DNA from: an uncultured Gammaproteobacteria bacterium
Lineage (GTDB): Bacteria; Patescibacteriota; Patescibacteriia; Patescibacteriales; UBA12075
Direction: 5' to 3'
Length of the DNA: 64,000 nucleotides
Assembly (NCBI GenBank): GCA_964459725.1
Contig: CAYWNT010000001.1
Location: 155,529-219,528, forward strand
Position 1 is the stretch's first letter. Each line of letters begins with the position of its first letter. A program made the position numbers and the translations under genes. This document shows positions 36,186-62,252 of this stretch, one piece after another. Below the pieces are notes generated by a model. It did not search any database. It was not told the origin of the DNA and saw nothing but the letters and a program-made list of their open reading frames with translations.

Positions 36186-36216
36186 TCAATTACAAATTAC
36201 AAATTAAGAATTATCA

Positions 36217-37194
36217 ATGATTATTGAGGTTAAAAATTTAAATAAAACCTACGACTTTTACAAAAAACAACCCGGCCTTCTAGCTTCCATTAAAGGTCTG
36301 TTTAAACGTGAGAAACTTTTTACTGAAGCTGTAAAAGATATTAATTTTGATATCAAGGAGGGGGAGTTGATCGGATTTCTCGGGCCGAATGGTGCTGGTA
36401 AAACTACCACTCTTAAAATGCTTTCTGGAATACTTCATCCCACCTCGGGAGAGGCTAGTGTTTTAGGTTTTGAGCCGTGGAAAAGGGAGCCTAAATATCA
36501 AAAACAATTTGCGTTAGTGATGGGGCAGAAAAATCAACTTTGGTGGGATTTGCCAGCCATGGAGAGCTTTATTCTTAACAAAGAAATTTATGAAGTATCA
36601 GATGAGGATTTCAAGAAGAATCTAGATGAGTTGGTTGAGCTTCTGGACATCGGAGATATTCTAAATATACAAGTACGAAAACTTTCACTAGGCCAAAGAA
36701 TGAAATGTGAACTTGTGGCGGCGCTTTTGCACGGGCCTAAAGTATTGTTTTTGGATGAGCCGACAATCGGCCTTGATGTTGTGGCTCAAAAAAGTATTAG
36801 AGATTTTCTAAAAAAATATAACCAAGAAAAAAACACAACTATCATACTTACTTCTCACTACATGGAGGACATTAAAGAGCTTTGCGAGAGAGTGGTTATA
36901 ATTGATCATGGGAAAATAATGTACGATGGTAAATTGAAAGCTTTGATAGACAAATATGCTGATCACAAAGAGCTGAAAATCACCTTTAATAACAATGGAG
37001 TTACCCGTGAACAGGTTGAGGGATATGGTCAGATTGATAAATTTGATAAATATAGGGTTGAGATCAAAGTGAAACGCGAAAAAGCAAAAGACATTGCTGC
37101 ACAAATTTTATCATCAGAATTACCGGTTGATGATATCCTGATTGATGAAATAGATATTGACGATATCATTAGAAAAATATTTGCGAATAATTAA
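36217..37194 (+). CDS. ABC transporter ATP-binding protein
   Basis: Walker A GPNGAGKTT, signature LSLGQRM, Walker B LFLDEPT. Confidence 0.9.
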   Translation: MIIEVKNLNKTYDFYKKQPGLLASIKGLFKREKLFTEAVKDINFDIKEGELIGFLGPNGAGKTTTLKMLSGILHPTSGEASVLGFEPWKREPKYQKQFALVMGQKNQLWWDLPAMESFILNKEIYEVSDEDFKKNLDELVELLDIGDILNIQVRKLSLGQRMKCELVAALLHGPKVLFLDEPTIGLDVVAQKSIRDFLKKYNQEKNTTIILTSHYMEDIKELCERVVIIDHGKIMYDGKLKALIDKYADHKELKITFNNNGVTREQVEGYGQIDKFDKYRVEIKVKREKAKDIAAQILSSELPVDDILIDEIDIDDIIRKIFANN

Positions 37195-37199
37195 TTTAT

Positions 37200-37227
37200 G
37201 TTACGCGTTATGAGTTGCGCGTTATGA
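37200..37227. repeat. 14-nt unit x2 (GTTACGCGTTATGA / GTTGCGCGTTATGA), GTTATGA/CACATAAC repeat family
   Basis: The tandem repeat fills the spacer between the ABC ATPase stop and the NUDIX start. Confidence 0.8.
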
Positions 37228-37234
37228 GAAATGT

Positions 37235-37663
37235 ATGACAAAAGAAAAATTGATTCCTCGTGTAGGAATAGGAGTGCTAATTCAAAACGACAAAGGTGAA
37301 GTATTGATGGGGCTTAGGCAAGGCTCTCATGGTGCGGGTGAATGGAGTTTTCCTGGAGGGCATTTGGATTTTGGTGAGACTATTTTTGAAACCGCTAAAC
37401 GTGAGACCAAGGAAGAAGTAGGGTTGGATGTTGAGGAGTTTGAGTTAATATCAGTGGCAGATGAAATGAGGTATATAAAAACGGATAATAAGCATTATTT
37501 AAATATCGGGATAAAAGCGGTATATAATGGAGGGGAGCCAAAATTAATGGAGCCAGAAAAATGTAAAGAATGGAGATGGTTTAGCCTGGAAGATTTGCCA
37601 GAAAGAATATTTGAAGGTACGGAGTTGGTAATTAATAATTTTAAAAAAGGTAAAATATATTAA
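37235..37663 (+). CDS. NUDIX hydrolase
   Basis: Nudix box GGHLDFGETIFETAKRETKEEVGL. Confidence 0.85.
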   Translation: MTKEKLIPRVGIGVLIQNDKGEVLMGLRQGSHGAGEWSFPGGHLDFGETIFETAKRETKEEVGLDVEEFELISVADEMRYIKTDNKHYLNIGIKAVYNGGEPKLMEPEKCKEWRWFSLEDLPERIFEGTELVINNFKKGKIY

Positions 37664-37668
37664 AACAT

Positions 37669-39114
37669 ATGAAATTTGAATTTCAAAATAAGAAAATGAA
37701 TCAAGTTAAGGCTGATCTAGTTTTAGTCTTGGTAATTAATAAAGATTTGAAACATAAGTCAGTTACTGACCTTAAGTTTTTAAAGGAGCAGAATTTTAAA
37801 GGTGGCCCAGAAGAGGTTTGCTTTCTGCCTCATAAAAATAAAATTTATCTAGGAGTAGAGAATCTAGAGCTTGATAACTTGCGTTCAGCTGCTGCTCGAG
37901 TTGTAAGATTTCTAAAGACAAAAAAATATAAATCACTCAAGATGGGACTTTATGGAGAGAATTTCTTAGAGACTACAGAGGCATTAGTTGAAGGATTTTT
38001 GCTTGGTGGTTATAACTTTGATAAATACAAGAGCAAGAAAAAGAAAGCTAGTTTGAGTCGCATCAAGTTTTTCGTAGAGGGAAAGGCGCAAAAAGAAATA
38101 GATATAAAAGAAATGAAAAGAGCAATACAGGAGGGTGAGATTGTTGCCCGGGCAACAAACTATACTCGTGATATGGTGAACACTATTCCAGCTGAAATTA
38201 CTCCGGTTACAATGTCGGAGATCGCCAAGGAGTTAGCAGATAGAAATGGACTTGGTATTAAAGTGCACGGAGAAAAGTATTTAGAAAAAGAAGGAATGGG
38301 GGCATTTCTGGCAGTAAGTAAGGCATCTCCTTATCCTCCACAGTTGATTCATCTAACTTACAAGGCGGAAAATCCGGTAAAGAAAATTACAATTGTTGGA
38401 AAAGGCCTTACTTATGATAGTGGCGGGCTTAGCCTGAAGCCTAGTGACTTCATGCTTACCATGAAATCTGACAAGGGTGGAGCTAGTGCCGTATTGGGTA
38501 TCATGAAAGCAGCTAGTGAGCTGAAGTTGCCGCTTGAAATTCATGGAATCATTGGAGCAGTAGAGAATATGATTGGTCAGCATGCCTATAAACCAGATGA
38601 CGTATTAATTGCAAAAAATAAAAAAACTATTGAAGTAATAAATACAGATGCGGAAGGTAGATTGGTCTTGGCGGATTGCCTTGGTTATGCGCAAGACTTG
38701 AAGCCTGACTATGTTATAGATCTAGCAACGCTTACAGGTGCTTGTGTGATTGCCCTGGGAGAGTATACAGTTGGTATCATGGGGCACAGTGATGAACTCA
38801 AGGGCGACTTTTATGAATCTTCAAAGAGCTCTGGTGAGCTTGCCGAAACTCTTGGCTTCAATAAGCATCTAGCAAAACTAATAACGAGTGAAGTAGCAGA
38901 TATTAGAAATACAGGGAAGTCTAGATATGGTGGTGCTCAAACCGCTGGGCTTTTCTTGAATGAGTTTATAGAAAAGAAGAATAAAGATAAATGGATTCAT
39001 TTAGACATCGCAGGACCTGCTTATGTTCAAAGTCCGTGGGGGGTAAATCCTTATGGCGCTAGTGGAGCTGGAGTAAGACTGGTTACTTCATGGCTTGAAA
39101 AATTGTCTGAATAA
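37669..39114 (+). CDS. pepA: leucyl aminopeptidase (M17)
   Basis: NTDAEGRLVLAD signature, VGKGLTYDSGG. Confidence 0.9.
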   Translation: MKFEFQNKKMNQVKADLVLVLVINKDLKHKSVTDLKFLKEQNFKGGPEEVCFLPHKNKIYLGVENLELDNLRSAAARVVRFLKTKKYKSLKMGLYGENFLETTEALVEGFLLGGYNFDKYKSKKKKASLSRIKFFVEGKAQKEIDIKEMKRAIQEGEIVARATNYTRDMVNTIPAEITPVTMSEIAKELADRNGLGIKVHGEKYLEKEGMGAFLAVSKASPYPPQLIHLTYKAENPVKKITIVGKGLTYDSGGLSLKPSDFMLTMKSDKGGASAVLGIMKAASELKLPLEIHGIIGAVENMIGQHAYKPDDVLIAKNKKTIEVINTDAEGRLVLADCLGYAQDLKPDYVIDLATLTGACVIALGEYTVGIMGHSDELKGDFYESSKSSGELAETLGFNKHLAKLITSEVADIRNTGKSRYGGAQTAGLFLNEFIEKKNKDKWIHLDIAGPAYVQSPWGVNPYGASGAGVRLVTSWLEKLSE

Positions 39115-39167
39115 AATTGTAATATTTTTCTCTTTCGGTTTTTGGTCGTTTATGGTATAATATTATC

Positions 39168-41048: not shown

Positions 41049-41098
41049 CTTGTTGGATTGCTGGAGGATAAATTCCATAAGTTTAATATTTAAAAAAT

Positions 41099-41902: not shown

Positions 41903-41987
41903 TATAAAACACTCTACAATAAATAGTATAAAAGCTCCATTTGGGGCTTTTATTGATTTATTGGGTAATTAATAGTAAGGTATTATC

Positions 41988-43349
41988 ATGACTACAGAAA
42001 AGAAGCAAAATAAAATAGAACTACTAGCTCCAGCAGGCAATCTGGAGAAGATGAAAACAGCTTTGGCCTTTGGGGCGGATGCTGTGTATGTTGGTATTCC
42101 TGATTTTTCTCTGCGAGTGCGGATTAATGATTTTGATATAGAGAAAATAAAAGAAGCGACAAAATATTGCCATGAGAAGGGTAAAAAAATATATGTAACA
42201 ATAAATATATTTGCTCATAATCGTCACATTGAAAAACTTCCAGCATACATTGAGGAGTTGAAAAAAATTGGAGTGGACGCTCTTATTATTTCTGACCCTG
42301 GTGTGATTGATGTTGTTAAAGAAGTTTGGCCAGAGGCGGCAATCCACCTCTCAACTCAGGCTAATGCCACGAATTGGAGGAGTGTTAAATTTTGGCATAG
42401 CCAGGGCGTTGAGAGAGTAATACTTGGCAGAGAAACAACTCTTGAAGAGATAAAAGAGATTCATGAGCGTGTTCCTGAAGTAGAGCTTGAAACTTTTGTG
42501 CATGGAGCAATGTGCATGGCCTATTCTGGTAGGTGTTTCTTGTCTAAGCATTTTGTAGATAGGTCTGGTAATCTGGGGGATTGTGTTCAGCCGTGTAGAT
42601 GGCGGTATAATTCTAGAAAACAGACGACAGACGACAGACGACAGGATGAGAGATTTTTTATAACTGAAGAAAGTCGTCCTGATCAGCCTTTGGAGATTGT
42701 TGAGGAGGAGCATGGGTCTTATATTTTGAATTCTAAAGATCTTAATTTACTTAAACATGTAAAAGAATTGGTTGATGCTGGTGTGGTTAGTTTGAAAATT
42801 GAGGGGCGTGCTAAGAGTGTTTATTATCAGGCAGTTGTTAATGGAATATACTCACACATAACATCCTCCTATTGCACGGCGGACAGGCATAACTCACAAC
42901 CCATAACACAAAAAGAGATTAATTATTTATATGAGGAGCTTGAAAACAAGATTACGCATAGGGGGTATACTACTGGGTTTATTCTTGGGGAGAGGGCTGA
43001 TCAGGATGTTGAAAATACACATAAGGTTATTGATTGGGAGTTTTGTGGGGTCGTCGTTGACGACGAGTCAAAAGTCCAGCCCCGTCATTCGACAGGGCAA
43101 GAGTCTATAAAGTCCAAAGTGCTTAATAATCAGATTTTAGTGAAGGTTCATAATGTTATTAAGCGAGGGGATGAGGTGGAGATTGTTGTGCCAAAATATG
43201 ATATAATAAAGATGAAGGTTGATAAGATGTATGAATTAAATGGAGAAGAAATAGATGAGGCGCATGGAGGGCAGGAGAAGATGGTTTTGCTTGAAGTAGA
43301 CGTTGATAGGGAAGTTCCTGAATATTCTGTTTTGAGACGCAAATTGTAA
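41988..43349 (+). CDS. peptidase U32 family protein
   Basis: LLAPAGN, ETFVHGAMCMAYSGRCFLS, LKIEGRAKS. Confidence 0.85.
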   Translation: MTTEKKQNKIELLAPAGNLEKMKTALAFGADAVYVGIPDFSLRVRINDFDIEKIKEATKYCHEKGKKIYVTINIFAHNRHIEKLPAYIEELKKIGVDALIISDPGVIDVVKEVWPEAAIHLSTQANATNWRSVKFWHSQGVERVILGRETTLEEIKEIHERVPEVELETFVHGAMCMAYSGRCFLSKHFVDRSGNLGDCVQPCRWRYNSRKQTTDDRRQDERFFITEESRPDQPLEIVEEEHGSYILNSKDLNLLKHVKELVDAGVVSLKIEGRAKSVYYQAVVNGIYSHITSSYCTADRHNSQPITQKEINYLYEELENKITHRGYTTGFILGERADQDVENTHKVIDWEFCGVVVDDESKVQPRHSTGQESIKSKVLNNQILVKVHNVIKRGDEVEIVVPKYDIIKMKVDKMYELNGEEIDEAHGGQEKMVLLEVDVDREVPEYSVLRRKL

Positions 43350-43355
43350 TAAATT

Positions 43356-43447
43356 CACATAACATGTAACACATAACATGCAACAAAATTCAAAAAGCGA
43401 AGCTTTTTGATGGTCATTGTTATGAGTTATGTGTTATGAGTTATGTG
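43356..43447. repeat. long composite inverted repeat: CACATAAC-type 14-mer arms around a CAAAAAGC-GAA-GCTTTTTG hairpin
   Basis: Left arm 43356..43384, core 43391..43409, right arm 43415..43447. The arms are imperfect reverse complements. Confidence 0.85.
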
Positions 43448-43451
43448 TAAA

Positions 43452-44030: not shown

Positions 44031-44085
44031 TGAAGAAAATATTTTATTTTACGTATTACTTATTATAGGGCAGTAGAATATTATT

Positions 44086-45324: not shown

Positions 45325-45328
45325 TATT

Positions 45329-45368
45329 ATACGTATACATTAAAATATACATTTTAATGTATACGTAT
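45329..45368. repeat. 40-nt hairpin palindrome (18-bp perfect arms, ATAC loop)
   Basis: ATACGTATACATTAAAAT-ATAC-ATTTTAATGTATACGTAT. It shares TACATTTTAATGTA and its reverse complement with the palindrome at 11207..11238. Confidence 0.95.
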
Positions 45369-45406
45369 GATTTGCAATAAATTTAATTTTTATATTGTCT
45401 GGTAGT

Positions 45407-46285: not shown

Positions 46286-46325
46286 AGCCCCTTTAACTCT
46301 TAAAAAAGTTGAAGGGGCTTTTTAT
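46286..46325 (+). terminator. rho-independent terminator
   Basis: AGCCCCTTTAACT / AGTTGAAGGGGCT 13-bp stem followed by a T-run. Confidence 0.85.
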
Positions 46326-46347: not shown

Positions 46348-47466
46348 ATGTTTATGAAATTAATCGAATTAAACAAAGAAAAATTAGATAATTTTTTAGC
46401 TAATCAGGACAAATCTCAGTTTTTGCAGTCTTTTGAGTGGGGAGAATTTCAGGAAAAGACTGGTTTGGAAGTTTTTAGATATGGCGTGGAAGAAAATGAA
46501 GAATTAGTGGCAGTTGTTTCTTTGATCAAGAAAAATCTTGGAATTGGGAAGAGTTATTTTTATGCGCCGAGAGGAGTCGTGTTTAGTCATAAAGTCATAA
46601 AGTCAAAAGTCGCCCGCCTGCCGGACGGGCAGGAAAGTGTTTATAATTTTTTATTTAATGAGATAGAAAAAATTGCTAAAAAGGAAAATTGTATATTTCT
46701 CCGTTTTGAACCGCACAGAAAGTCAAAAGTCGCCCGCCTGCCGGACGGGCAGGAAAGTCGAAAGTCGAAAGTTATTAAAACTATCGATTTGCAGCCGGCG
46801 AAAACTTTGATGTTGGATTTGGGAAAATCAGAGGAGGAACTTTTGCAAGACATGCATCAGAAGACTCGGTATAATATTCGACTTGCGGAGAAAAAGGGCG
46901 TTGAGGTGGTAGAGGTTGATTACCCACCCCGGCCTGATGGCCACCCCTCCAGAGAGGGGAATTTATTTGAGGAGTTTTGGAAATTGATGAGTCAGACTGG
47001 AGGTCGTGATGGATTTCGGCTACATTCTAAAAATTATTACAAAAAAATGCTAGATGAGTCGAAAGTCTATAAAGTCGAAAGTCGAAAGTCTGAAGTTGAT
47101 TTAAGTATAAAATTGTTTCTGGCGAAGTATCAGGGGGAGGTGATTGCTGGAAATATTATTTCTTTTTTTGGAGATACTGTGACCTATATGCATGGTGCAT
47201 CATCTAATGAGTATAGAAATGTGATGGCTCCGTATATTCTTCAATGGGAAGTGATAAAGGCGGCAAAAGAAAAGGGGTATAAATATTATGACTTTTTTGG
47301 GATTGATAAAGATAAGTGGCCGGGAGTGACTAGATTCAAAGAAGGATTTTGCGTGAAAAATCTGGAAAAATGCCAAGTGACTTATCCAGGTACATTCGAT
47401 TTGGTGTTTAGTAAAGTGTGGTATAATGCATATAACATCCTTCGAAGAATTCGAAGAGTGTTATAA
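46348..47466 (+). CDS. FemAB-family peptidoglycan interpeptide-bridge aminoacyltransferase
   Basis: FLQSFEWGEFQ, YAPRG, TRYNIRLAEKKG, YMHGASSNEYRNVMAPYILQWE, YDFFGI. It contains several in-frame repeat insertions. Confidence 0.8.
   Translation: MFMKLIELNKEKLDNFLANQDKSQFLQSFEWGEFQEKTGLEVFRYGVEENEELVAVVSLIKKNLGIGKSYFYAPRGVVFSHKVIKSKVARLPDGQESVYNFLFNEIEKIAKKENCIFLRFEPHRKSKVARLPDGQESRKSKVIKTIDLQPAKTLMLDLGKSEEELLQDMHQKTRYNIRLAEKKGVEVVEVDYPPRPDGHPSREGNLFEEFWKLMSQTGGRDGFRLHSKNYYKKMLDESKVYKVESRKSEVDLSIKLFLAKYQGEVIAGNIISFFGDTVTYMHGASSNEYRNVMAPYILQWEVIKAAKEKGYKYYDFFGIDKDKWPGVTRFKEGFCVKNLEKCQVTYPGTFDLVFSKVWYNAYNILRRIRRVL
46600..46638 (+). repeat. 39-nt AAAGTC + GC-hairpin element, copy 1
   Basis: AAGTCAAAAGTCGCCCGCCTGCCGGACGGGCAGGAAAGT, identical to 46720..46758. 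Confidence 0.95.
46720..46758 (+). repeat. 39-nt AAAGTC + GC-hairpin element, copy 2
   Basis: Exact copy, offset by exactly 120 nt (40 codons) from copy 1. Confidence 0.95.
46922..46960 (+). repeat. GC-rich bipartite hairpin element, copy 2 (in frame in the FemAB-family gene)
   Basis: ACCCACCCCGGCCTGATGGCCACCCCTCCAGAGAGGGGA. Confidence 0.85.
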
Positions 47467-47491
47467 AATCAAAAATTAAAAATTTTCAAAA

Positions 47492-48880
47492 ATGGATAAA
47501 ATATTACTTATAATAAAACGTTTAATTCCAAAAAAGATATTTAAATTACTTCAACCCATATATCATTTCATCATGGCTTGGTTTGCCGCTCTAGTTTATG
47601 GGTTTCCTAGTGAGAAGCTGGTTGTTATTGGAGTTACTGGAACTACTGGTAAAACTACCAGTGTTTTTTTGATTGCCAAGATGCTGGAAGGTCTGGGGTA
47701 TAAAGTGGGCTATACTTCTACAGCAATGTTTAATGATGGAAAAAAAGAATGGATGAATGATAAGAAGATGACAATGGTGGGAAGGTTCTTCACTCAAAAG
47801 ATGATTCGAAGTATGTATAGAAACAAATGCCAATTTGCTATTGTGGAAACCACTTCAGAGGGGATAGTGCAGTTCAGGCATCGATTTATAAATTATGACA
47901 CTGTAGTTTTTACCGGGCTATATCCAGAGCATATTGAGTCTCATGGGAGCTTTGAGAATTACAAAGAAGCAAAGGGGAGACTGTTCTCGCATCTTAAAAA
48001 ATGTAAATACAAATTCACGGATAACGAGAAAAGAGTGATAGCGGCAGACAAGGGCATGAAGAAGATAGACCTGGAAAGGGTTAAGAAGACAATTGTTGCC
48101 AATGGAGATGATGAGCATAAGGATTATTTCCTTAGCTTCCCGGCTGACAAAAAAATTATATTTACAAAAAATAGTGAGAGCAGTGGTGGAGAGACTGAGT
48201 GGAAGATTGTCCGTTACGGGGACATAGTTCCAGGAAAGAACGGAGTAAGTTTTGTGGTGGCAGGGAATAAGATTGATCTGAAGTTGCTGGGAGGGTTCAA
48301 TGCTGATAATGCCATGACGGCAGTTGGGGTTGGTGTCTCTCTGGAAGAAAAATATGACAGAATTAGAGAGGGACTGGAAAGTATAAAAGGAACACCAGGC
48401 AGACTAGAGAGAATTGACGAAGGGCAAGACTTCACAGTGATAGTTGATTATGCTTTTGAGCCTGGTGCGGTAAAAAAGCTTTATGAAACAATAAATGCGA
48501 TTCCACATAATAACATAATCCATGTTCTAGGCTCAACCGGAGGAGGAAGGGATGTGGCTAGGCGACCTGTGTTAGGAGAGATTGCAGGAGAAAAGGCCAC
48601 TTATGTGATAGTTGCCAATGAAGACCCATATGATGATGATCCTCAGACAATTATTGACCAGGTTGCGATTGGAGCAGAAAGAAAGGGTAAAAAGCAGGAT
48701 AAAGATTTATTCAAAATCATGGATCGTCGTTTAGCCATCAAAAAGGCCTTGGAATTAGCTAAAAGCGATGATGTGGTGATAATAACAGGAAAAGGCAATG
48801 AACAGGCAATTTGCATAGCCAATGGGGAGAAAATACCTTGGGATGATAGATTAGTAACTAGAGAACTATTAAAAAAATAA
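47492..48880 (+). CDS. murE: Mur ligase family, MurE-like UDP-MurNAc-tripeptide synthetase
   Basis: GVTGTTGKTT P-loop, ETTSEG, and a C-terminal Mur ligase domain with GSTGGGRD. Confidence 0.8.
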   Translation: MDKILLIIKRLIPKKIFKLLQPIYHFIMAWFAALVYGFPSEKLVVIGVTGTTGKTTSVFLIAKMLEGLGYKVGYTSTAMFNDGKKEWMNDKKMTMVGRFFTQKMIRSMYRNKCQFAIVETTSEGIVQFRHRFINYDTVVFTGLYPEHIESHGSFENYKEAKGRLFSHLKKCKYKFTDNEKRVIAADKGMKKIDLERVKKTIVANGDDEHKDYFLSFPADKKIIFTKNSESSGGETEWKIVRYGDIVPGKNGVSFVVAGNKIDLKLLGGFNADNAMTAVGVGVSLEEKYDRIREGLESIKGTPGRLERIDEGQDFTVIVDYAFEPGAVKKLYETINAIPHNNIIHVLGSTGGGRDVARRPVLGEIAGEKATYVIVANEDPYDDDPQTIIDQVAIGAERKGKKQDKDLFKIMDRRLAIKKALELAKSDDVVIITGKGNEQAICIANGEKIPWDDRLVTRELLKK

Positions 48881-48944
48881 AAAAAATAAGAAAAAATATA
48901 ATAAAAATTTTAATATTGAGCTAAAATTAAACAAATAATAGCTA

Positions 48945-52200: not shown

Positions 52201-52774
52201 AGAGATAAAAGAAGAGCTTATAAAAGCAGGCCTATCAGAAGATGGAAAGGTGGCCTTGATTGACGGTAAGACAGGGGAAAAATTTGATAACAAAGTTACT
52301 GTGGGATACAAGTACATGTTAAAACTGAACCACATGATTGAAGATAAGATTCACCAGAGATCAATTGGACCATACTCACTTATTACTCAACAGCCTTTGG
52401 GTGGTAAAGCTCAGTTTGGTGGACAGAGATTTGGAGAAATGGAAGTGTGGGCATTGGAGGCTTATGGAGCTGCCCATTGTTTGCAGGAAATTCTAACTAT
52501 TAAATCTGATGATGTGCCAGGAAGAAGCAAGGCTTATGAATCAATTATTAAGGGAGAGGAGATTAGAAAGTTAAACGTACCTGAATCATTTAACGTTTTG
52601 GTTAGAGAAATGAAAGGTCTTTGTTTGGATGTTGAATTACTTGGAGGAGATGATCAACCGGTAAATCTGGAGTTAGACGAGGAAGATGTTGAAACTGTTC
52701 CGGCTGAAAATGATGACAAAGGAGATAATGATGAAAAAAAGGAAGAAGAGAGCAGTGAAGACTCTGAAAAATAA
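49289..52774 (+). CDS. rpoB: DNA-directed RNA polymerase subunit beta
   Basis: Collinear conserved RpoB blocks, for example GRHGNKGVISKI and QRFGEMEVWALEAYGAA. The start is moved to ATG 49289; the track TTG 49244 lies inside a leader hairpin. Confidence 0.95.
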   Translation: MFYSKIPNYKGAEDRKYFIGSHASVQMPDLIESQKDSYKWFLKEGLADLFDEISPVTDFIGRDLELYFKDFVLDEPKFNEVESRKKNITYEAPLRVKVVLTNKRTEQTEEQEVFLGDFPLMTDNGTFIINGIERVVVSQLIRSAGVIFSSEFLKGKKYYGAKIIPNRGAWLEIETDANKVIWVRIDRKRKVAVTSLLRAFGISDDEEIIDLFKDVDVKADGEDGYIDATIAKDIAKNEAEGLKEVYKRIRPGDLATTENARQLIYSMFFRFDRYDFDRVGRYKLNRKFGFDIPNNKETRILRKEDLISIIKEVIRLNITQEDEDDIDHLGNRRVRAIGELIQNKFRVGLARMERIIKDRMSTADINEINPGKLINARPVISVVKEFFMSSQLSQFMDQINPLAELEHKRRLSAMGPGGLTRERAGFDVRDVHTTHYGRICPIATPEGPNIGLIGHLASHAKLNKYGFLEAPYRKVINSVPNKKEETEGHVASEDVCIIKNDKKGKVIVKGGETINKKKASEIEDKIDVDTMIPVKPVVTSEIHYLDAFEDEKFVTTAFTTPIDEDGHFLVNKCEGRVQGTPGTVEVNKVDYLGVAANQIISIATSLIPFMEHDDGQRALMGTNMQRQAVPLVSPDSPIVGTGMEGNAAVNSGHVIVAEDNGEVTVVDGDNIEVKYKGDKTVKYELTKFLRSNASTCINQKPIIDVGDKIKKGQSLTDGPSIDNGELALGKNVLVAFMTWEGYNFEDAIIVSERMVSDDVFSSIHIEDYTIDIRDTKLGEEMITSDIPNISEEKLKNLDDRGIIRIGAEVSSGDILVGKITPKGETELSAEEKLLRAIFGEKAKDVRDSSLYLEHGEHGKVVDVKIFSREDGDKLSAGVLQSVQVTVANLRKIQVGDKMAGRHGNKGVISKIVPVEDMPHMEDGTPIDVILSPLGIISRMNLGQLLETHLGFAAKKLGYKAATPVLNGISEEEIKEELIKAGLSEDGKVALIDGKTGEKFDNKVTVGYKYMLKLNHMIEDKIHQRSIGPYSLITQQPLGGKAQFGGQRFGEMEVWALEAYGAAHCLQEILTIKSDDVPGRSKAYESIIKGEEIRKLNVPESFNVLVREMKGLCLDVELLGGDDQPVNLELDEEDVETVPAENDDKGDNDEKKEEESSEDSEK

Positions 52775-52785
52775 TTCTTAAATTA

Positions 52786-52878
52786 TAATTACTAATTTCT
52801 AACATAAATCCTAATTTCTAATTACTAATTTCTAAAATATTTAGAAATTGAAATTTAGAAACTTAGAAATTTAATTAC
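52786..52878. repeat. rpoB-rpoC spacer built from 3 direct TAATTTCTA and 3 inverted TAGAAAYT units
   Basis: Direct copies start at 52793, 52812 and 52826. Inverted copies start at 52842, 52856 and 52864. The central 10-bp hairpin is at 52827..52849. Confidence 0.9.
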
Positions 52879-52880
52879 AT

Positions 52881-56813: not shown

Positions 56814-56847
56814 TTTGATAACTTAGAATAATTGAACTCATATAAAA

Positions 56848-56880
56848 AAATCGCCATCCAATTGGATGGCGATTTTATTT
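56848..56880 (+). terminator. rho-independent terminator (usable from both strands)
   Basis: AAATCGCCATCCAA / TTGGATGGCGATTT perfect palindrome flanked by A-run and T-run. Confidence 0.85.
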
Positions 56881-57043
56881 TAGTGTAATTTGTATAGTAT
56901 TAAAAACTCTAAGCACTAAATTATAAACTCTAAACAAAACTTAAATTCAAATTTTCAAAACTGGAAATTGTAAACAAATTTTAAACATTTGGATTTTTGG
57001 TATTGGTATTTGTTTGTAATTTCGGCATTAGAATTTGGGATTT

Positions 57044-57982
57044 TTATCTACTTAGTCCATATTTCTCAATATTCTTGTCTGCCTGTTCTTGGATGAGTTT
57101 TATTTGTTTTTTTCCTTGTGTGGTTTTGAAGAGGTGGGAAAATCTTCCTTGTGCTTTCAGATAGTCGTCTACTTTTACTTTTTTGGCTGGCACGTTTAGT
57201 TTTTTTGTTAGCTCACCGTTTACATATTCAAGTAACGGGTAGAGACCAGTTTGAGCTGCTAGTTTTCCAATACCTACTGAGCTGTCTGATTTTACTCGCC
57301 ATCCAGGGATGCAAGGTGATAGGATTTGGATATAAGCAGGTCCTGGAGTTTCGATTGCTTTCTTTACTTTTGCTTCAATATCGCCTAGGTATCCGGTTGT
57401 GGATTGGGCGACATAATTTACTCCGTGAGCCAGGGCAATAGCGATCATATCTTTCTTTGGTTGGTGTGAGCCTATAGCATCAATTTGCTTACCCTTTCCT
57501 GATGGGGTAGTAGTGGTTGATGATCCCCATGGAGTAGCACCACTAGCTTGCATACCAGTATTGGAGTAAGCTTCATTGTCATAGCAGACGTAGAGGATAT
57601 CTTCTCCTCTTTCCCACATCCCACTGATAAGTCCGAAACCGATATCAAAAGTACTGCCGTCTCCTCCTTGAGCGACGACTTTTACTTTTTTGTCCTTTTT
57701 CTTCTGTTTTTGAGCAGCGAGTATTCCAGAGGCAACACCGGCAGCGTTTTCAAAAAGTGAATGAATCCAAGGCATGCCCCAAGCAGATTCAGGGTAAGGG
57801 GTGGTGGTTACTTCTAGACATCCTGTCCCATTGGCGATAATTGTGTCAGGTCCAAGTACATTGGCCACAGTTCGAGCAGCAATCAGCTGCCCACAACCAG
57901 CACAAGCCCTATGTCCATAGGATAGGAGGGGTTTTTGTTTTTTGACTGTAGTTTTCTTCTTCATTTTTGTTTTTGTTGTCAT
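57044..57982 (-). CDS. porB: 2-oxoacid (pyruvate):ferredoxin oxidoreductase beta subunit
   Basis: CAGCGQ, and the GGDGSTFDIGF ThDP-binding motif. Confidence 0.9.
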   Translation of the reverse strand: MTTKTKMKKKTTVKKQKPLLSYGHRACAGCGQLIAARTVANVLGPDTIIANGTGCLEVTTTPYPESAWGMPWIHSLFENAAGVASGILAAQKQKKKDKKVKVVAQGGDGSTFDIGFGLISGMWERGEDILYVCYDNEAYSNTGMQASGATPWGSSTTTTPSGKGKQIDAIGSHQPKKDMIAIALAHGVNYVAQSTTGYLGDIEAKVKKAIETPGPAYIQILSPCIPGWRVKSDSSVGIGKLAAQTGLYPLLEYVNGELTKKLNVPAKKVKVDDYLKAQGRFSHLFKTTQGKKQIKLIQEQADKNIEKYGLSR

Positions 57983-57995
57983 ATAATTATTAATT

Positions 57996-58211
57996 TTATA
58001 TTAAATTAGCTGGTATTATTTTTTTAATTTCTTTTATATTTTTAACGTTTTCTATCTGACCAATGAACTTTGATGCATCCAGAATTTCAATTAGAATTGG
58101 TTTACCGGTGGGGGATAGATGAATCAGAAAATTACCAAATTCTTTGGTATTGACTATCTCTCCTTTGGCTACTTCTATTGATAAAATGTTTGACTCAATA
58201 TCGTAAATCAT
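57996..58211 (-). CDS. DUF2283-like small protein (putative antitoxin partner)
   Basis: YDIESNILSIEV...GKPILIEILDAS pattern (from memory of DUF2283). Confidence 0.65.
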   Translation of the reverse strand: MIYDIESNILSIEVAKGEIVNTKEFGNFLIHLSPTGKPILIEILDASKFIGQIENVKNIKEIKKIIPANLI

Positions 58212-58268
58212 AATAAAATTTTTATATAAACTTTCAACTTTACGGACTTTACAGACTTTCGACTATTT

Positions 58269-58487
58269 TTATTTCTTAACAGGATAAAAGGTGCAAATTT
58301 TAGAAACTTTTCCTTCTTTTTTGTAAAGCACCTTAATCCCATCTTTTTCTGCAGTTAGGTATTTCTCCTTCTTGTCAGTTTTGTCAGGCAACTTAACCGT
58401 ATCTTCAATCTGCTCACGCGTAAAAAAGACCTTATGTTTATTTAATATATCAAATTTTTGTTCTGCGTATTTTGTGAAGTGGAGCAT
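58269..58487 (-). CDS. DUF4258-like small protein (putative toxin partner)
   Basis: 72 aa. H-x-x-x-A-x-x-(K/R) start (HFTKYAEQKFDI) and a C-terminal TFYP. Pairing with DUF2283 is a common arrangement (from memory). Confidence 0.55.
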   Translation of the reverse strand: MLHFTKYAEQKFDILNKHKVFFTREQIEDTVKLPDKTDKKEKYLTAEKDGIKVLYKKEGKVSKICTFYPVKK

Positions 58488-58492
58488 ATCGA

Positions 58493-59296
58493 TTATTGTG
58501 GGTTAATTCCGATACATGTATTACCATTCCATTCGCAACACGGAGTAAGTTCGCACACTTGTTGCGTGTTATTAACAATTGGCTGACTACAATTTTGTTG
58601 ATTTATAAATTGGTTTGAACATCCAGTTTCTATTGTGTGACATTCACAGCAAATTTCGGAATTGTCTGTTGAAACATTATAATTCCGGAGACCAAATTGG
58701 TTACACTGTGCATTGCAGAATTGTTCTTGTATTTCAGCGATATCACTGGGGCTAGGTAAACAATTAGATGTTGCTTCGTTGCTATCCGATATTGGTATAC
58801 ATTTATACTTTGGGTCACCATTTGTTTTACTTATTTCACATTTTTCTGCACTATTACAATTCTCTGTGCCACAATTTTTAATCTCAATCTTTTTAAAAAC
58901 AGTCAAATCAGGATTTACTGTGTATAGAATTAAATATGAACAGGTGACAAGCACCATTCCACTTAGGGCGCCGCCTATCCATTTCTTCGCTTCTCCTACA
59001 GCCTCGGCGTTCCCTCCTGCTGTAATCCATCTCACACCTCCAAACATCATTATTATAGCCGCCAGTATTCCCACAACACCAGTAGCGTAGTTGTAAATTC
59101 CGCTAATATATTCTCCAATTGCTTTTCCACTCTTTATGTCCATTTTGTTTCCTCCAGGAATTGGCACTTGAAGCTCAAAATTATCGATTGCATCTCCTTC
59201 AGCCAGACCTATTTCAGGCAGAAAAATAAATAATCCAAAAAGCAAAACAATAAGAAAAGACAGTGAGAATATTTTTTTGTGAAGCCCTTGATTCAT
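58493..59296 (-). CDS. TrbC/VirB2-type (T4SS pilin-like) protein with Cys-rich C-terminal extension
   Basis: Signal/TM segment, then ILAAIIMMFGGVRWITAGGNAEAVGEAKKWIGGALSGMVLVTCSYLILY (pilin-like hairpin). A roughly 130-aa tail with about 16 Cys follows. Confidence 0.6.
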   Translation of the reverse strand: MNQGLHKKIFSLSFLIVLLFGLFIFLPEIGLAEGDAIDNFELQVPIPGGNKMDIKSGKAIGEYISGIYNYATGVVGILAAIIMMFGGVRWITAGGNAEAVGEAKKWIGGALSGMVLVTCSYLILYTVNPDLTVFKKIEIKNCGTENCNSAEKCEISKTNGDPKYKCIPISDSNEATSNCLPSPSDIAEIQEQFCNAQCNQFGLRNYNVSTDNSEICCECHTIETGCSNQFINQQNCSQPIVNNTQQVCELTPCCEWNGNTCIGINPQ

Positions 59297-59450
59297 ATTT
59301 TTATTTTAAACTAATAATATAAGAGATTCGATAAATTAATTTGGATAATTCCCATCCTTGGAGGGGAATGTTTATTTTTTGCCCAAAGGGCTGAGAAAAA
59401 TAGACTCGGGGTGGGTCAAGGATCGTTGAATTTTAACTATTTTATTGTTA

Positions 59451-59495
59451 ACCCACCCCGCCAGGCTTCGCCTGCCCGCCCCTCCGAGGAGGGGA
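59451..59495. repeat. GC-rich bipartite hairpin element, copy 3 (intergenic)
   Basis: ACCCACCCCGCCAGGCTTCGCCTGCCCGCCCCTCCGAGGAGGGGA. Its ACCCACCCC also pairs with GGGGTGGGT at 59408..59416. Confidence 0.85.
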
Positions 59496-59510
59496 CTTTC
59501 TTGGTGGTTC

Positions 59511-60728
59511 TTATCTTCCGATGAATTTAAGTTTATCGTCTTTTTGTCTCACAGTCTTGATTACCTTTTTAATCATGTTTCCTGTGATATCTCTTCCTCC
59601 TAGTCCTACAACAAATCCTTGTATCTTAGTCAGTGCTTTATTCTTGATGGCGGATTTAACGTCTAGGGTGAGTGGCCCATCAGTGGCGCCTAGAGAGACT
59701 GCTTTTTCTATAACTGCAACTTCTTTAGCATTTTTTACAATCTTTAGAACTTCTTCAGCTGGGAATGGGCGATAGGTTTTTATTTTTATAATTCCGGTGC
59801 CTGAGGTGATAAATTTCAGCTCGCCTGTCTTTGTGCTGTGTTCGTCAATGACATCCTTTATAGTTCCTGCAACAGATCCCATAGCGATCAATACCGTCTT
59901 TGGATTCTTTGGTCCATAGTATTCTATGAGGCCGTTGTTTACTTGAGATCTTTTTTCTTGTTTTTTTATGGCAGACGGCACTAGTTTTTTTAGATTTTCG
60001 TATTCTTTTAGAATTACTTTTTGACTATCTCTAAGGTCATTGTGTAGCTCTTCTCTGATTTCCATGTAGTGTGCCGGAGGGGCAAAGCAGCCAAAGGTAA
60101 CCGGGTTTTTCGGATCTAGATAATCTCCTTTTTTAGGCTTGTAGTCTGGAAGAAATTTTTTAATTTCTTTTTGAGTTGGAATAGAAACTCCTTCATAGGT
60201 ATGAGTGAGAACAAAGCCATCAATATTTATCATGACAGGAATTTTCAAACTCTCTGCAATTTTATAGGCTAAGATATGCTGCTCTATTGCTTCTTGGTGA
60301 TTCTCTGCAAAGAAATGAATCCAGCCGGCATCACGAATTGTCATAGAGTCTTGGTGATCATTCCAGATGGTGATTGGTGCTGATACGCCGCGATTGGCGC
60401 AAGTCACCACAATAGGGAGTCTCATGCCGGCGATGTTGAAAAGCACTTCTGTCATTAGAAGTATTCCTTGGGAACTGGTAGCTGTATAGGTTCGCACTCC
60501 GGAAGCGCTAGCTCCGGTAACGATAGAGGCAGCAGCAAACTCTGACTCTGCTCTTACGTATTCATAGCTAGCCTCCCCATCAGCCTTCAGTTTCGCCAAG
60601 TCCTCTACAATGTGAGTCTGAGGTGTAATAGGGTAGGCTGATATTACGGCTGGCTTGATGTTGTTTACTGTTTGGGCTATCGCCTGGGAACCCTCTAGGA
60701 TTTGAGATCGTTGGGTTTTTTTTGTCAT
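59511..60728 (-). CDS. porA: 2-oxoacid (pyruvate):ferredoxin oxidoreductase alpha subunit
   Basis: The N-terminal block GSQAIAQTV...ISAYPITPQT and a size of 405 aa fit PorA. Confidence 0.9.
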   Translation of the reverse strand: MTKKTQRSQILEGSQAIAQTVNNIKPAVISAYPITPQTHIVEDLAKLKADGEASYEYVRAESEFAAASIVTGASASGVRTYTATSSQGILLMTEVLFNIAGMRLPIVVTCANRGVSAPITIWNDHQDSMTIRDAGWIHFFAENHQEAIEQHILAYKIAESLKIPVMINIDGFVLTHTYEGVSIPTQKEIKKFLPDYKPKKGDYLDPKNPVTFGCFAPPAHYMEIREELHNDLRDSQKVILKEYENLKKLVPSAIKKQEKRSQVNNGLIEYYGPKNPKTVLIAMGSVAGTIKDVIDEHSTKTGELKFITSGTGIIKIKTYRPFPAEEVLKIVKNAKEVAVIEKAVSLGATDGPLTLDVKSAIKNKALTKIQGFVVGLGGRDITGNMIKKVIKTVRQKDDKLKFIGR

Positions 60729-60831
60729 ATTTTCTTTATTTAAGTTTAGTTTTTTTAATTAATTTAATTTAGAAATTTTCAATTACCAAATAACAATATT
60801 CAAACAATTTTCAATAATCAATTTTTTAAAA

Positions 60832-61224
60832 TTACTCCTTGGAGTTTTTATCAATTATTGATGAAAATATTTTTACCAGTTCGAATGATTCTTGAATTAA
60901 TGGTTGGATATCTTGTGAAAAATTTTGGTTTCCATGTAGTAATAATTCAAGCCAATACTTACTCTCTTTCGATTCTTTTCTTGAGATTCTAAGTCTGTGT
61001 AAAAAATCTTTTTTGCTAATTGCTTCGTTTGCCTCTCTGTAGTTTGCTCCTACGGAGCCTGTTGATCTTATAAATTGTTTTTTGTATTCAATGGTTTCGA
61101 TCGTATTGGGAATAATTTTTGACAAATTGAAACAATTCTTTGCAAAATTCAAAGTTCTTTCTTCGAGATCAAAAACTTTATTATTTGAATTATTGGTCAT
61201 TGCTTGGTGATTAATATTTGGCAA
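60832..61224 (-). CDS. four-helix-bundle protein (23S rRNA intervening-sequence protein family)
   Basis: Pattern QFIRSTGSVGANYREANEAISKKDFLHRLRISRKESKESKYWLELL. Confidence 0.8.
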   Translation of the reverse strand: MPNINHQAMTNNSNNKVFDLEERTLNFAKNCFNLSKIIPNTIETIEYKKQFIRSTGSVGANYREANEAISKKDFLHRLRISRKESKESKYWLELLLHGNQNFSQDIQPLIQESFELVKIFSSIIDKNSKE

Positions 61225-61235
61225 TTGATGATTAT

Positions 61236-61499
61236 TTATTTAGCTTCAAGCTTCATTTCAATGCATTTCACAGGGCATTCTGCGGCGCAAACTCCGCAGC
61301 CTTTGCAGTAATCATAATCAGTAATTGGTTTTTGTTTATCTTTGCCCTTTTTCATGGTTATGCATCCTTCAGGACATACCTTGGAGCATGTCCCGCAACC
61401 GATGCATTTATCAAAATTTGTTGATGGTATATAGGTGCGCCACCCGCCGGTTTTGTTATTTTTTGTAGAACCGGGTTTGGCTGTAACAGAAATTTTCAT
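61236..61499 (-). CDS. porD: 2-oxoacid:ferredoxin oxidoreductase delta subunit (2x[4Fe-4S] ferredoxin)
   Basis: CIGCGTCSKVCP and CKGCGVCAAECP. Confidence 0.85.
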   Translation of the reverse strand: MKISVTAKPGSTKNNKTGGWRTYIPSTNFDKCIGCGTCSKVCPEGCITMKKGKDKQKPITDYDYCKGCGVCAAECPVKCIEMKLEAK

Positions 61500-61570
61500 A
61501 TTTTTGTATTTTTTAAATAATATTGTATAAAATAATTCGAAGTGACTATAATTTATTTCAAGTGAATATG

Positions 61571-61618
61571 AAGTCAGAAAACTTTTGACTTTATGGACTT
61601 TATAGACTTTGGACTGTC
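61571..61618. repeat. GACTTT (reverse complement AAAGTC) repeat tract with leading hairpin
   Basis: AAGTCAGAAAACTTTTGACTT hairpin, then GACTTTATG, GACTTTATA, GACTTTG, GACTGTC. Confidence 0.85.
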
Positions 61619-61624
61619 AAATAA

Positions 61625-62167
61625 TTATAGTTTGTAGGCTGTTTCTATGGCTTTGATATTTTTGTTCACAATATCTAGTCCTTTGCTTTGGAATTTTTGT
61701 TTTATCGCTTTTTTTAGAGCATCCAGACCTACTAATTTTGTTCCACGAGCAAAAGCTCCGAGTATTATGGTGTTTACAATGTTTCTGCCCAAGATATCTA
61801 GAGCGATCTTGGTTGCATCAATAACATGAATATTTTCTTTTGGTAGTTTTAGGTTTAGTTCTTCTTTTGATTTGGCTGAATTTACTATGACAATTGTTTT
61901 GTCGTCACATCCCTTGGTCACATCTACAGTGTCTATTAATGTTGGATCTTGTATGATCAGAATATCGGGGGAGAGGACATGCTCTCTGGTGCGGATTGGG
62001 CTTTTGTCAATTCGAGCAAATGCTTCAATCGGAGCACCTGTTCGCTCAACGCCAAAAGATGGAAAAGCTTGAGCTTCCCAGTTGTCGTTAAAAGCTGAGA
62101 TAGCGATTAATTCTGCTGCGGTAACAACGCCTTGTCCTCCGCGGCCGTGTATTCGTATTTGGTACAT
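61625..62167 (-). CDS. porG: 2-oxoacid:ferredoxin oxidoreductase gamma subunit
   Basis: IRIHGRGGQGVVTAAELIA. Confidence 0.9.
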   Translation of the reverse strand: MYQIRIHGRGGQGVVTAAELIAISAFNDNWEAQAFPSFGVERTGAPIEAFARIDKSPIRTREHVLSPDILIIQDPTLIDTVDVTKGCDDKTIVIVNSAKSKEELNLKLPKENIHVIDATKIALDILGRNIVNTIILGAFARGTKLVGLDALKKAIKQKFQSKGLDIVNKNIKAIETAYKL

Positions 62168-62183
62168 ATTTTATTAAATTTTC

Positions 62184-62252
62184 AATTACGAATTATTAAT
62201 TACGGAATATAAAATTAATATTTTTTTGTATCGTAATTCGTAATTATTAATT
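62184..62252. repeat. AATTACG heptamer inverted repeat
   Basis: AATTACGAATTATTAATTACG (62184..62204) faces CGTAATTCGTAATTATTAATT (62232..62252). Confidence 0.85.

Follow-up and report, generated by a model that had tools for sequence, protein, structure and literature searches.

Why should the short spacers of a gene-dense bacterial genome be filled with tandem repeats of seven nucleotides (nt), some of them facing each other as inverted pairs? The question is raised by a 64,000-nt stretch of a Patescibacteria genome (contig CAYWNT010000001.1 of assembly GCA_964459725.1, positions 155,529 to 219,528; hereafter the window), which has 37% GC and whose right half carries housekeeping genes for an ABC transporter, a NUDIX protein, leucyl aminopeptidase, a two-component system, peptidase U32, RuvA, FemAB, a Mur ligase, RpoB and RpoC, followed by the pyruvate:ferredoxin oxidoreductase (por) operon. 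The evidence gathered below gives about an even chance that each pair of inverted arrays supplies the arms of a selfish element of the intervening sequence (IVS) type, with or without an open reading frame (ORF), seated in a transcribed spacer. The full form would consist of a 5' array, a small gene for a PF05635 four-helix-bundle protein and an inverted 3' array, and the window offers one example, at 60779-61228 on the minus strand.

A proposed IVS-type element in the por operon

The por operon (57044-62167, minus strand) is interrupted at several points and comprises porG, porD, a PF05635 gene, porA, a gene resembling type IV secretion system (T4SS) pilins, a 72-aa ORF, a DUF2283 ORF and porB. 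The PF05635 and pilin insertions are common to L213, the nearest relative with the same por synteny (L numbers denote the loci and contigs used for comparison). The element lies between porD (fer4) and porA. Its gene occupies 60832-61176, with the longest ORF reaching 61224, and the protein belongs to PF05635 (E value 8e-17) and TIGR02436 (E value 5e-22). The 5' arm (61185-61228) consists of NNNNCAA units and the 3' arm (60779-60831) of TTGNNNN units. The latter corresponds to an NNNNCAA periodicity listed at 60770..60830 by an earlier reading of the letters (the original prediction); this tract is not significantly periodic alone (lag 7 = 14/21), and it turned out to pair, as the 3' arm, with an inverted partner on the other side of the PF05635 gene. 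Although both arms are degenerate, with a best lag-7 score of 14/21, NNNNCAA-type units stand upstream of the gene here and in 6/6 homologous loci.

As RNA, the two arms are predicted to form a duplex of -35.9 kcal/mol (z -5.9), and in the whole 471-nt RNA the terminal stem encloses the ORF in both the minimum free energy and the centroid structure (free energy, dG, -91.1; z -4.0). With its ORF, arms and predicted stem, the element agrees with the structural definition of an IVS except in its location, which is an operon spacer and not an rRNA gene. The protein was modeled as a four-helix bundle with a predicted local distance difference test score (pLDDT) of 95.8, and the model matches PDB 2rld (template modeling, TM, score 0.83-0.88) and 2gsc, the closest solved homologues, with five chains (A-E) of each among the hits. 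It also superposes on Avd, the accessory protein of diversity-generating retroelements (TM 0.73-0.79), but sequence identity to Avd is only about 13% and neither a reverse transcriptase nor a template/variable repeat lies nearby. Patescibacteria, Omnitrophota and a DPANN archaeon (Aenigmarchaeota) encode close homologues of the window protein (55-77% identity). A great many of these homologues come from contigs of less than 3 kb, which is what flanking repeats that break assemblies would lead one to expect.

Inverted arrays around PF05635 genes in other genomes

The comparison drew on 80 species from many phyla, each represented by a 20-kb locus around ruvA. A tblastn search of the 80 loci with the window PF05635 protein gave no match, and a hidden Markov model search of the loci detected PF05635 genes in L060 and L009. 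In L060, a Verrucomicrobiota locus chosen without regard to repeats, the gene sits exactly between inverted (AGTGAGA)5 and (CTTCTCA)4 arrays, so that the layout reads (GTGAGAA)n, gene, (TTCTCAC)n. Six more homologues, chosen by protein similarity alone, all have A/C-rich heptamers upstream and inverted T/G-rich heptamers downstream and are co-oriented with their neighbors. In L191, the PF05635 gene is flanked by CAATTAC TAATTTC CAATTTC and TTAGAAATT units, which belong to the family that builds the rpoB-rpoC hairpin of the window and hairpins in L054. Moreover, about nine related PF05635 genes (52-66% mutually identical), mostly in different neighborhoods, carry (AAAGTC)n directly upstream and (GACTTT)n directly downstream. 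Two unit families of the window therefore flank PF05635 genes in other organisms.

The association was assessed by the duplex z-scores of the flanks of 21 PF05635 genes from many phyla against those of 45 random small genes. A z of -2.5 or lower was found for 16/21 PF05635 genes (76%) and for 2/45 controls (4%), with medians of -2.8 and 0.05, respectively (Mann-Whitney p 8e-8). The nine PF05635 genes picked regardless of repeats gave p 0.002.

Inverted arrays without a gene

Three further spacers of the window hold inverted arrays around a short loop. In the spacer between peptidase U32 and ruvA (43356-43447, plus strand), a 5' arm (CACATAA CATGTAA)x2 at 43356-43386 and a 3' arm (GTTATGA GTTATGT)x2 at 43417-43447 embrace an inner hairpin (43390-43410); the 31-nt arms are 77% complementary (dG -35.9, z -6.0), and the probable ruvA ATG (43452) follows the 3' arm by 5 nt. 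This hairpin is absent in relatives, whose orthologous spacers (L005/L010/L013) measure only about 14-24 nt. The hairpin of the rpoB-rpoC spacer (52786-52878, plus strand) has a 5' arm of TAATTAC/TAATTTC units and a 3' arm of inverted TTAGAAA/GAAATTN units (dG -17, z -4.45), and it ends 2 nt before the rpoC ATG. The third (62183-62260, no strand assigned), between a thioredoxin-like gene and porG, consists of AATTACG/AATTATT arrays with 27-nt arms at 62183-62209 and 62234-62260 (81% complementary; dG -12, z -2.2). All three fold better than their shuffles, while the solo arrays are unstructured as RNA. The elements are co-oriented in transcribed spacers, and their arms are predicted to pair as RNA stems of about 25-45 bp.

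Period 7 in spacers of the window and of other genomes

The original prediction held that heptamer repeats, likened to the short tandemly repeated repetitive (STRR) sequences, fill many short spacers of the right half. Pooling the 19 intergenic spacers of that half (3292 nt), we found a lag-7 autocorrelation of 0.365, compared with 0.306 in dinucleotide shuffles (z 7.7). This was the sole strongly raised lag, the next being 14 (z 3.5) and 8 (z 3.2), with no other above z 3.5; lag 7 of the left-half intergenic sequence had z 2.4. Tracts with at least 17/21 matches numbered eight at period 7 and zero to three at each other period from 4 to 15. Singly, only the spacers at 36186, 43350 and 52775 passed the shuffle test at lag 7 (p<0.01), which means that the pooled signal is strong and the individual short arrays are marginal. 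From 36 to 63 kb the gene map shows 14 co-directional spacers shorter than 130 nt, and by our count nine of them carry an array. At least three head-to-tail 7-nt copies are present at 36188, 42620, 43419, 46753, 47071, 52801, 62229 and 29005.

The enrichment expected over shuffled sequence was thus borne out, and the arrays listed at 36188, 37200, 43356-43447, 52786-52878 and 62184 are real on reading the sequence. The GACTTT units noted at 58229 and 61571 form a real core repeat, but their spacing of 7-9 nt (Tandem Repeats Finder, TRF, period 9; best lag 9) sets them apart from arrays of strict 7-nt units. The layout of direct and then inverted units around a short loop, described as frequent, holds for the three spacers above, and most arrays are solo. 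Confinement of the repeats to the window is refuted, since a GACTTT array lies about 6 kb past the right end (L085 2585-2621) and relatives as well as other phyla carry period-7 arrays. The list was slightly overstated in detail and the observation is real; with several unit families of one architecture, the STRR-like label is a fair description.

The excess of heptamers is not special to the candidate phyla radiation (CPR) or to cyanobacteria. In 1.2 Mb of ruvA loci from 81 genomes, arrays with at least three copies numbered 44 at period 7, 14 at period 8, 12 at period 9, 8 at period 10 and 5 at period 6. Good period-7 examples come from Moranbacteria (L009), Peregrinibacteria (L025), Bacteroidota (L083), Desulfacinum (L056), Prosthecobacter (L060) and Acidobacteriota (L077), and the excess is present in loci of Bacteroidota, Verrucomicrobiota, Acidobacteriota and Desulfobacterota. 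Of 51 arrays in these loci, 29 (57%) are intergenic, where intergenic DNA makes up 11.5% of the sequence. At this level, what we have here is a new host for a known phenomenon.

The GACTTT pattern across metagenomes

From the window array at 61587 and from L085 we derived a pattern of 23-24 nt, GACTTTAT(N)GACTTTATAGACTTT, which has two loci in this genome. It recurs exactly in more than 120 metagenome contigs among the matches listed, with GC contents of 28-63%, from groundwater, sediments and the human gut. We analyzed 109 non-redundant loci picked by the repeat pattern. In these, 130/152 GACTTT arrays (86%) are intergenic, although intergenic DNA accounts for 17% of the sequence, and the core stays constant while the spacing is 7, 8 or 9 nt (the share of 9 is inflated by the query). 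The commonest recurrent neighbor is a PF05635 gene of about 115 aa annotated as "23S rRNA intervening sequence protein". Where inverted pairs enclose a short loop, the polarity is AAAGTC, loop, GACTTT in 17 cases and the opposite in 0, and this polarity (17/17) matches that of the gene-bearing (AAAGTC)n-PF05635-(GACTTT)n elements.

Unit families and strain variation

Within this genome the units fall into a few families. AATTACR units occur at 29005, 36188 and 62183/62234 and, as TAATTAC, at 52786; GTTAYGN units at 37200 and 43356/43417; AAAGTC/GACTTT units at 43071, 46585, 46719, 47057, 58229 and 61571 and, past the window, at L085 2585; and TAATTTC forms a further family in the hairpin at 52786-52878. 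Pairs of window loci sharing a unit within one mismatch number 20, against 7.9 +/- 4.2 expected from random intergenic heptamers, and exact pairs 5 against 0.65. The AAAGTC arrays lie on the sense strand at 7/7 loci of this genome. Between Patescibacteria genomes the sharing is marginal (141 pairs versus 92 +/- 20, p 0.02; exact matches not significant), and lineage-wide families are therefore not claimed.

Between strains, one array was seen to vary as a block. At a polymorphic site (57972-57982, minus strand), L085, which is 99.85% identical to the window, has 47 extra nt directly upstream of the start of porB (TPP_enzyme_C), and this block, absent in the window, includes AATTACG AATTATT AATTAAA AATTACG. 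It is the sole indel in about 33 kb of strain comparison, and the 20-mer of the left arm at 62183 recurs exactly in this strain-specific array. Among the population contigs (L001-L004, L086-L092) there were no single-unit differences in copy number, only single nucleotide polymorphisms (SNPs). SNP patches between population contigs are located at 52722-52759 (by the rpoB-rpoC array), 47602-47782 (Mur ligase gene) and 57917-58005 (the polymorphic array); their clustering suggests recombination tracts rather than scattered mutation. In L213, the same por spacers hold array hairpins of other unit families. In our reading, the arrays of this genome are not private slippage products and belong to a few dispersed families gained or lost as blocks.

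Weighing the explanations

The IVS-type reading builds on what the sequences show: how the arrays are laid out, how the unit families are related, that one array is polymorphic as a block, that stems are predicted, and that arrays and PF05635 genes are statistically associated on the gene side. If it is right, the hairpins at 43356-43447, 52786-52878 and 62183-62260 would be ORF-less miniature forms, and the solo arrays and in-frame coding insertions would be half-elements, remnants or seeds. RNase III may cut the stem, by analogy with the 23S IVS of Coxiella and Leptospira, and the RNA would then either lose the insertion or, as an operon transcript, be split in two; this would be how insertions in operons are tolerated. 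The 7-nt unit might reflect one unit per subunit of an oligomeric PF05635 protein, or slippage might have lengthened the arms. The "common generating mechanism or common binding protein" originally proposed for the families is thereby sharpened to the anatomy of an IVS with a PF05635 gene, one such gene, which the original prediction did not relate to the repeats, lying between two of the arrays listed.

Several observations weigh against this reading. Most GACTTT arrays (about 120/137) are solo, and loci selected by GACTTT bias the PF05635 association upward, for which the nine genes picked regardless of repeats were tested separately. In the unbiased loci, 13/51 period-7 arrays have an inverted partner within 700 nt, a modest enrichment over the 5-9 obtained with control patterns; most array-rich loci (L083, L056, L025) have no PF05635 gene within 20 kb; and this genome has a single one in about 82 kb. 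The link to PF05635 is therefore weak on the array side. Units of different genomes are barely more alike than random intergenic heptamers (p 0.02), which implies that much unit diversity tracks local base composition, and one hairpin of L213, between the thioredoxin gene and porG, has reversed arm polarity. Cleavage of the array RNAs by RNase III is suggested only by analogy, and the rnc gene was not located. With regard to the features of miniature inverted-repeat transposable elements, inverted arms and some identical copies are present, but neither a target-site duplication nor a transposase or any further mobility function came to light, the polymorphic site alone having been inspected, by eye.

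According to the strongest alternative, the arrays are ordinary long simple sequence repeats (SSRs) made by slippage in place. A bias toward 7-nt units, as in the polymerase footprint idea of Mrazek, would generate neutral, tolerated arrays, and PF05635 genes would land in them or accumulate repeats. Dominance of period 7 across unrelated phyla, itself already published, agrees with this, as do units that largely follow local base composition, the preponderance of solo arrays, their degeneracy, the absence of conservation at orthologous spacers and Coxiella strains that differ by one heptamer (PMC4990558). However, slippage makes neither inverted arms nor identical copies of 20-40 nt at distant loci, and it leaves unexplained the exact 23-24-nt pattern in contigs of such different GC content, the constancy of the GACTTT core under varying spacing and the hairpin polarity of 17 to 0. 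Nor does it predict the strain data, in which eight population contigs show 0 single-unit differences and the one difference is a 47-nt block. Taken as a whole we consider the slippage account rather unlikely, but the solo arrays, the weak array-side link and the lack of a mobility function keep it a serious rival for the solo arrays.

The remaining alternatives are minor. Arrays stop 1-7 nt before start codons, an argument from position already made by MacGregor 2015 (PMC4679880), and one could suppose that a protein or the ribosome reads the units in the 5' leader and sets translation or transcription downstream, like the TAACTGA repeats of Beggiatoaceae or the heptamers of Nostoc. The solo arrays being unstructured as RNA and the sense-strand AAAGTC arrays would suit such cis-regulatory sites, and so would the effects of heptamer repeats on recF/recO expression that are reported from reporter work in Nostoc (10.1101/2022.06.06.494920). 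Yet the spacers are so short that any insert adjoins a start codon, and the genes that follow the arrays share no common function (ABC transporter, NUDIX, ruvA, murein ligase, rpoC, por subunits). Arrays are also absent or replaced by other families at orthologous sites and polymorphic between strains, and the same units occur inside coding regions. Furthermore, a recognizable Shine-Dalgarno motif was found in only about 14/57 genes of the window, with or without an array, and the notion that arrays replace Shine-Dalgarno sites was rejected on this count. We regard the regulatory explanation as very unlikely.

Still more improbable is that the inverted arrays are bidirectional terminators or attenuators between operon genes, with A-rich 5' and U-rich 3' arms: the 17 to 0 polarity and a roughly twofold excess of terminator-like sites at 36-56 kb (19 versus 9.7 +/- 3.5 shuffled, in a scan that includes the inner hairpin 43390-43410 and, on the minus strand, the femAB GC hairpins followed by ACTTTTGACT) would fit, but the array stems are long, AU-rich, mismatched and devoid of the clean U-tract of an intrinsic terminator, two of them lie within operons that are essential (rpoB-rpoC, por) and would suffer from termination, the femAB hairpins are terminator-like on the antisense strand only, and the genuine terminator-like palindromes (45326-45371, 46286-46319, 56841-56882) look different.

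Relation to known repeats and insertions

The closest known counterparts of the gene-bearing element are the IVS of 23S rRNA genes; elements of this type have so far been known chiefly from rRNA genes. In Leptospira and Coxiella these IVS carry an S23p/PF05635 ORF between inverted repeats that pair as a stem, 28 bp long in Coxiella. RNase III removes them from the precursor without ligation, and they are viewed as horizontally transferred selfish elements (PMC4990558). The Coxiella IVS has two or three tandem GACAGAT heptamers directly upstream of the ORF, their number varying with the strain, and RNase III cuts at the first of them (PMC4990558). PF05635 ORFs, together with ORF-less insertions at the same sites, are known from rRNA genes of CPR bacteria (PMC11270868). 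The window element resembles these IVS in its length of about 430-450 nt, in a PF05635 ORF within terminal inverted repeats predicted to form a long stem, in its co-orientation with the host transcript and in the occurrence of ORF-less versions. It differs in lying between por protein genes instead of in an rRNA helix and in having arms of short period throughout, and its excision by RNase III would be assumed by analogy; the tandem heptamers upstream of the ORF, described for Coxiella, correspond to degenerate units here.

In most prokaryotic genomes, heptanucleotides outnumber all other long simple repeats according to Mrazek 2007, as cited in PMC4679880 and PMC4692102, and the explanation offered there, speculatively, is the footprint of DNA polymerase. 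The present arrays share with these SSRs (Mrazek, Guo and Shah 2007; STRR, Mazel 1990) the head-to-tail 7-nt units, the mostly intergenic location, the dominance of period 7 and the several dispersed families. They differ in their Patescibacteria host and in many inverted pairs, some enclosing a gene, and some copies are in frame within genes; inverted pairing, gene enclosure and in-frame copies make the slippage account of the SSRs insufficient. STRR in the strict sense does not cover them, as the nearest relatives are Moranbacteria/Patescibacteria and the units are AATTACR, GTTAYGN, AAAGTC and TAATTTC. The STRR units themselves are presumably unrelated to the AT-rich units found here.

Two other repeat systems are instructive. 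The TAACTGA repeats of Beggiatoaceae, Cyanobacteria and Bacteroidetes likewise form short arrays a few nt before starts, with a unit shared across phyla, occasional copies in ORFs and poor use of Shine-Dalgarno motifs (MacGregor 2015, PMC4679880). Unlike the present families, they are a single unit with 169 direct sets and 1 inverted, and were read as the site of a translational regulator; a link to PF05635 is unmentioned in that paper. The GGGAATC/GGGGAYT repeats of Xanthomonas and Nostoc are intergenic, partly in inverted pairs and strongly variable in length and sequence between close relatives (Rehm 2015, PMC4692102), but their units are G-rich and quadruplex-capable, which the window units are not. 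Xanthomonas campestris encodes a protein of the PF05635 fold (PDB 2gsc).

In a partial library, we found no paper on heptamer repeats in Patescibacteria, where absence is not proof, and nothing beyond the Coxiella case that links PF05635 genes generally to heptamer arrays. The expectation that such repeats are undescribed in CPR-like genomes thus stands for the host, but the excess of heptanucleotides is general in prokaryotes, as the published work already states. It appears that the combination is undescribed: inverted short-period arrays framing PF05635 genes outside rRNA, unit families crossing phyla with and without the gene, and a CPR genome in which they fill most short operon spacers and also protein loops.

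A broader proposal, which we hold to be unlikely, is that the heptanucleotide repeats of bacteria (STRR, TAACTGA, GGGAATC and the rest) are cis-acting arms or debris of one IVS-type class, and that an oligomeric, Avd-like PF05635 protein binds the units, about one per subunit, and promotes spread or RNA-level excision in cis and in trans. If true, a PF05635 core would account for the prokaryotic excess of 7-nt repeats and give a function to a very large uncharacterized family. Two puzzles that have stood for about 20-30 years meet at this point, the commonness of heptanucleotide repeats and the role of the numerous "23S rRNA intervening sequence / four helix bundle" proteins. Should the link hold, IVS elements would be a general class of transcript-resident selfish elements rather than a curiosity of rRNA. 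In streamlined CPR genomes they would leave their mark on the spacers of operons and even on the loops of proteins, and the hypothesis would be directly testable.

Solo arrays in other spacers

Among the solo arrays, that at 36188-36215 (plus strand; AATTACA AATTACA AATTAAG AATTATC, two exact and two degenerate units) takes up the 31-nt gap separating the ABC-2 permease gene from the ABC ATPase gene and stops 1 nt short of the ATG; its lag-7 score is 17/21 (p<0.01) and its RNA is unstructured (z +0.8). The next spacer, between ABC ATPase and NUDIX, contains GTTACGC GTTATGA GTTGCGC GTTATGA (37200-37228, plus strand), in which two heptamers make a 14-nt super-unit (7+7; TRF period 14, 2.1 copies, 93%) without significant structure (z -0.4). 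These two arrays were considered as arms around the ABC ATPase gene, and this was rejected because they are not complementary by eye. An array overlooked originally, AAAATTA x2.9 at 47465-47484 (plus strand), fills the 25-nt spacer between femAB and the Mur ligase gene (lag 7 = 15/21).

On the minus strand, the AAAGTC-core array at 58229-58267 (sense AAAGTCTGT AAAGTCCGT AAAGTTG AAAGTT; spacing 7-9 nt) fills the spacer between the 72-aa ORF and the DUF2283 ORF, and that at 61571-61618 (sense CCAAAGTCTATAAAGTCCATAAAGTCAAAAGT, period 9) lies in the porG-porD spacer. About 2.6 kb past the right end of the window, L085 6306-6355 repeats the direct-then-inverted layout with a 12-nt unit (TAGCACATTCTA x2, then TAGAATGTGCTA x2). 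Clustered regularly interspaced short palindromic repeats (CRISPR) were rejected as an identity of the arrays because the units are contiguous, without spacers between them.

Copies inside coding genes

Of the coding copies announced between 42.6 and 47.1 kb, those at 42620-42644, 43071-43125, 46585-46638, 46719-46772 and 47057-47090 were recovered, and one at 42.9 kb is weak. All of the following are on the plus strand. In the peptidase U32 gene, ACAGACG x3.6 (42620-42644) is translated as KQTTDDRRQ, an in-frame loop insertion absent from homologues; rotated, its unit reads GACAGAC, one base off the Coxiella IVS heptamer GACAGAT. Farther on in the same gene, an AAAGTC unit is followed by a GC-rich mini-hairpin (CCCCGTCATTCGACAGGG) and then AGTCTATAAAGTCCAAAGTG (43071-43125), in frame and in a variable loop.

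The femAB gene has three copies. At 46585-46638, AGTCATAA-type units precede a 40-nt element, AAAGTCAAAAGTC-GCCCGCCTGCCGGACGGGC-AGGAAAGT (46599-46638), as an in-frame loop insertion. A second copy of the element, 100% identical (46719-46758), is followed by GAAAGTC x2.9 at 46719-46772; the two copies are 120 nt apart, with conserved FemAB sequence between them. The third, an AAAGTC array at 47057-47090 (AGTCGAA x4.6), is translated as ESKVYKVESRKSEV, an insertion of 13-16 aa that 6/6 aligned homologues lack. Compared with homologues, the coding copies are thus in-frame loop insertions: NSRKQTTDDRRQDE in peptidase U32, and KSKVARLPDGQES (twice) and ESKVYKVESRKSEV in FemAB. The same FemAB loops hold different arrays in other Moranbacteria. 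To the left, ACGAATT x4.1 of the AATTACG family (29005-29033) lies in the isoleucyl-tRNA synthetase gene, and a second coding array consists of GGAATCA x3.4 (26658-26681).

GC-rich mini-hairpins at 46611-46631, 46731-46751, 46927-46960 and 43080-43100 lie in frame in femAB and peptidase U32 in this 37% GC genome (for instance GCCCGCCTGCCGGACGGGC, or GGCCTGATGGCC followed by CCCCTCCAGAGAGGGG), some embedded in AAAGTC arrays, and they score as terminator-like on the antisense strand. A similar GC hairpin lies within the 5' array of the PF05635 gene of L214. Rickettsia palindromic elements and cyanobacterial small dispersed repeats are very small palindromes whose insertions, in frame, are found in coding genes and also in other repeats. 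Both differ from the present repeats in sequence and host, and the mini-hairpins here sit in AAAGTC arrays.

Logan short-read contigs end at 42629 (in the ACAGACG array) and at 46628 (in the 40-nt femAB repeat), and an ENA scaffold ends soon after an A-rich low-complexity stretch at 48871-48915 (region 48871-48937). Contig ends inside arrays indicate that the repeats fragment short-read assemblies, which is of practical concern.

Genome setting and other features

The best RuvA matches among GTDB species are metagenome-assembled genomes of the Moranbacteria type with only 50-54% identity, and the runner-up M17 peptidase in a large protein collection shares 67% of its residues. In the absence of a close relative, spacer orthology could be traced only in L005/L010/L013 and L213. 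Several metagenome assemblies contain the sequence itself, with 99.85-100% identity. The whole window gave 0 matches to Rfam families at gathering thresholds, 0 tRNAs and no rRNA, and sigma-70 promoter-like sites at 36-56 kb were not enriched (70 versus 63 +/- 7). Genes with a Shine-Dalgarno motif, mostly GGAGG, are concentrated among the small genes at 4.8-6 kb and 15.6-19.2 kb.

Near-perfect palindromes follow rpoC (56841-56882), the fer4 gene (45326-45371) and a 230-aa ORF (46286-46319); they resemble ordinary terminators, in one case bidirectional, and do not look like the hairpins of the arrays. Small ORFs that encode a free-standing GIY-YIG domain (11246-11491 in the left part of the region, and L087 614-1027) may be homing-endonuclease-like. 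The isoleucyl-tRNA synthetase (25851-29402) carries an insert of about 190 aa (residues ~523-713) that is absent from relatives, the two halves being contiguous in L005, L006 and L010, and its Pfam list places a His_Phos_1 (histidine phosphatase) domain between two tRNA-synt_1 parts.

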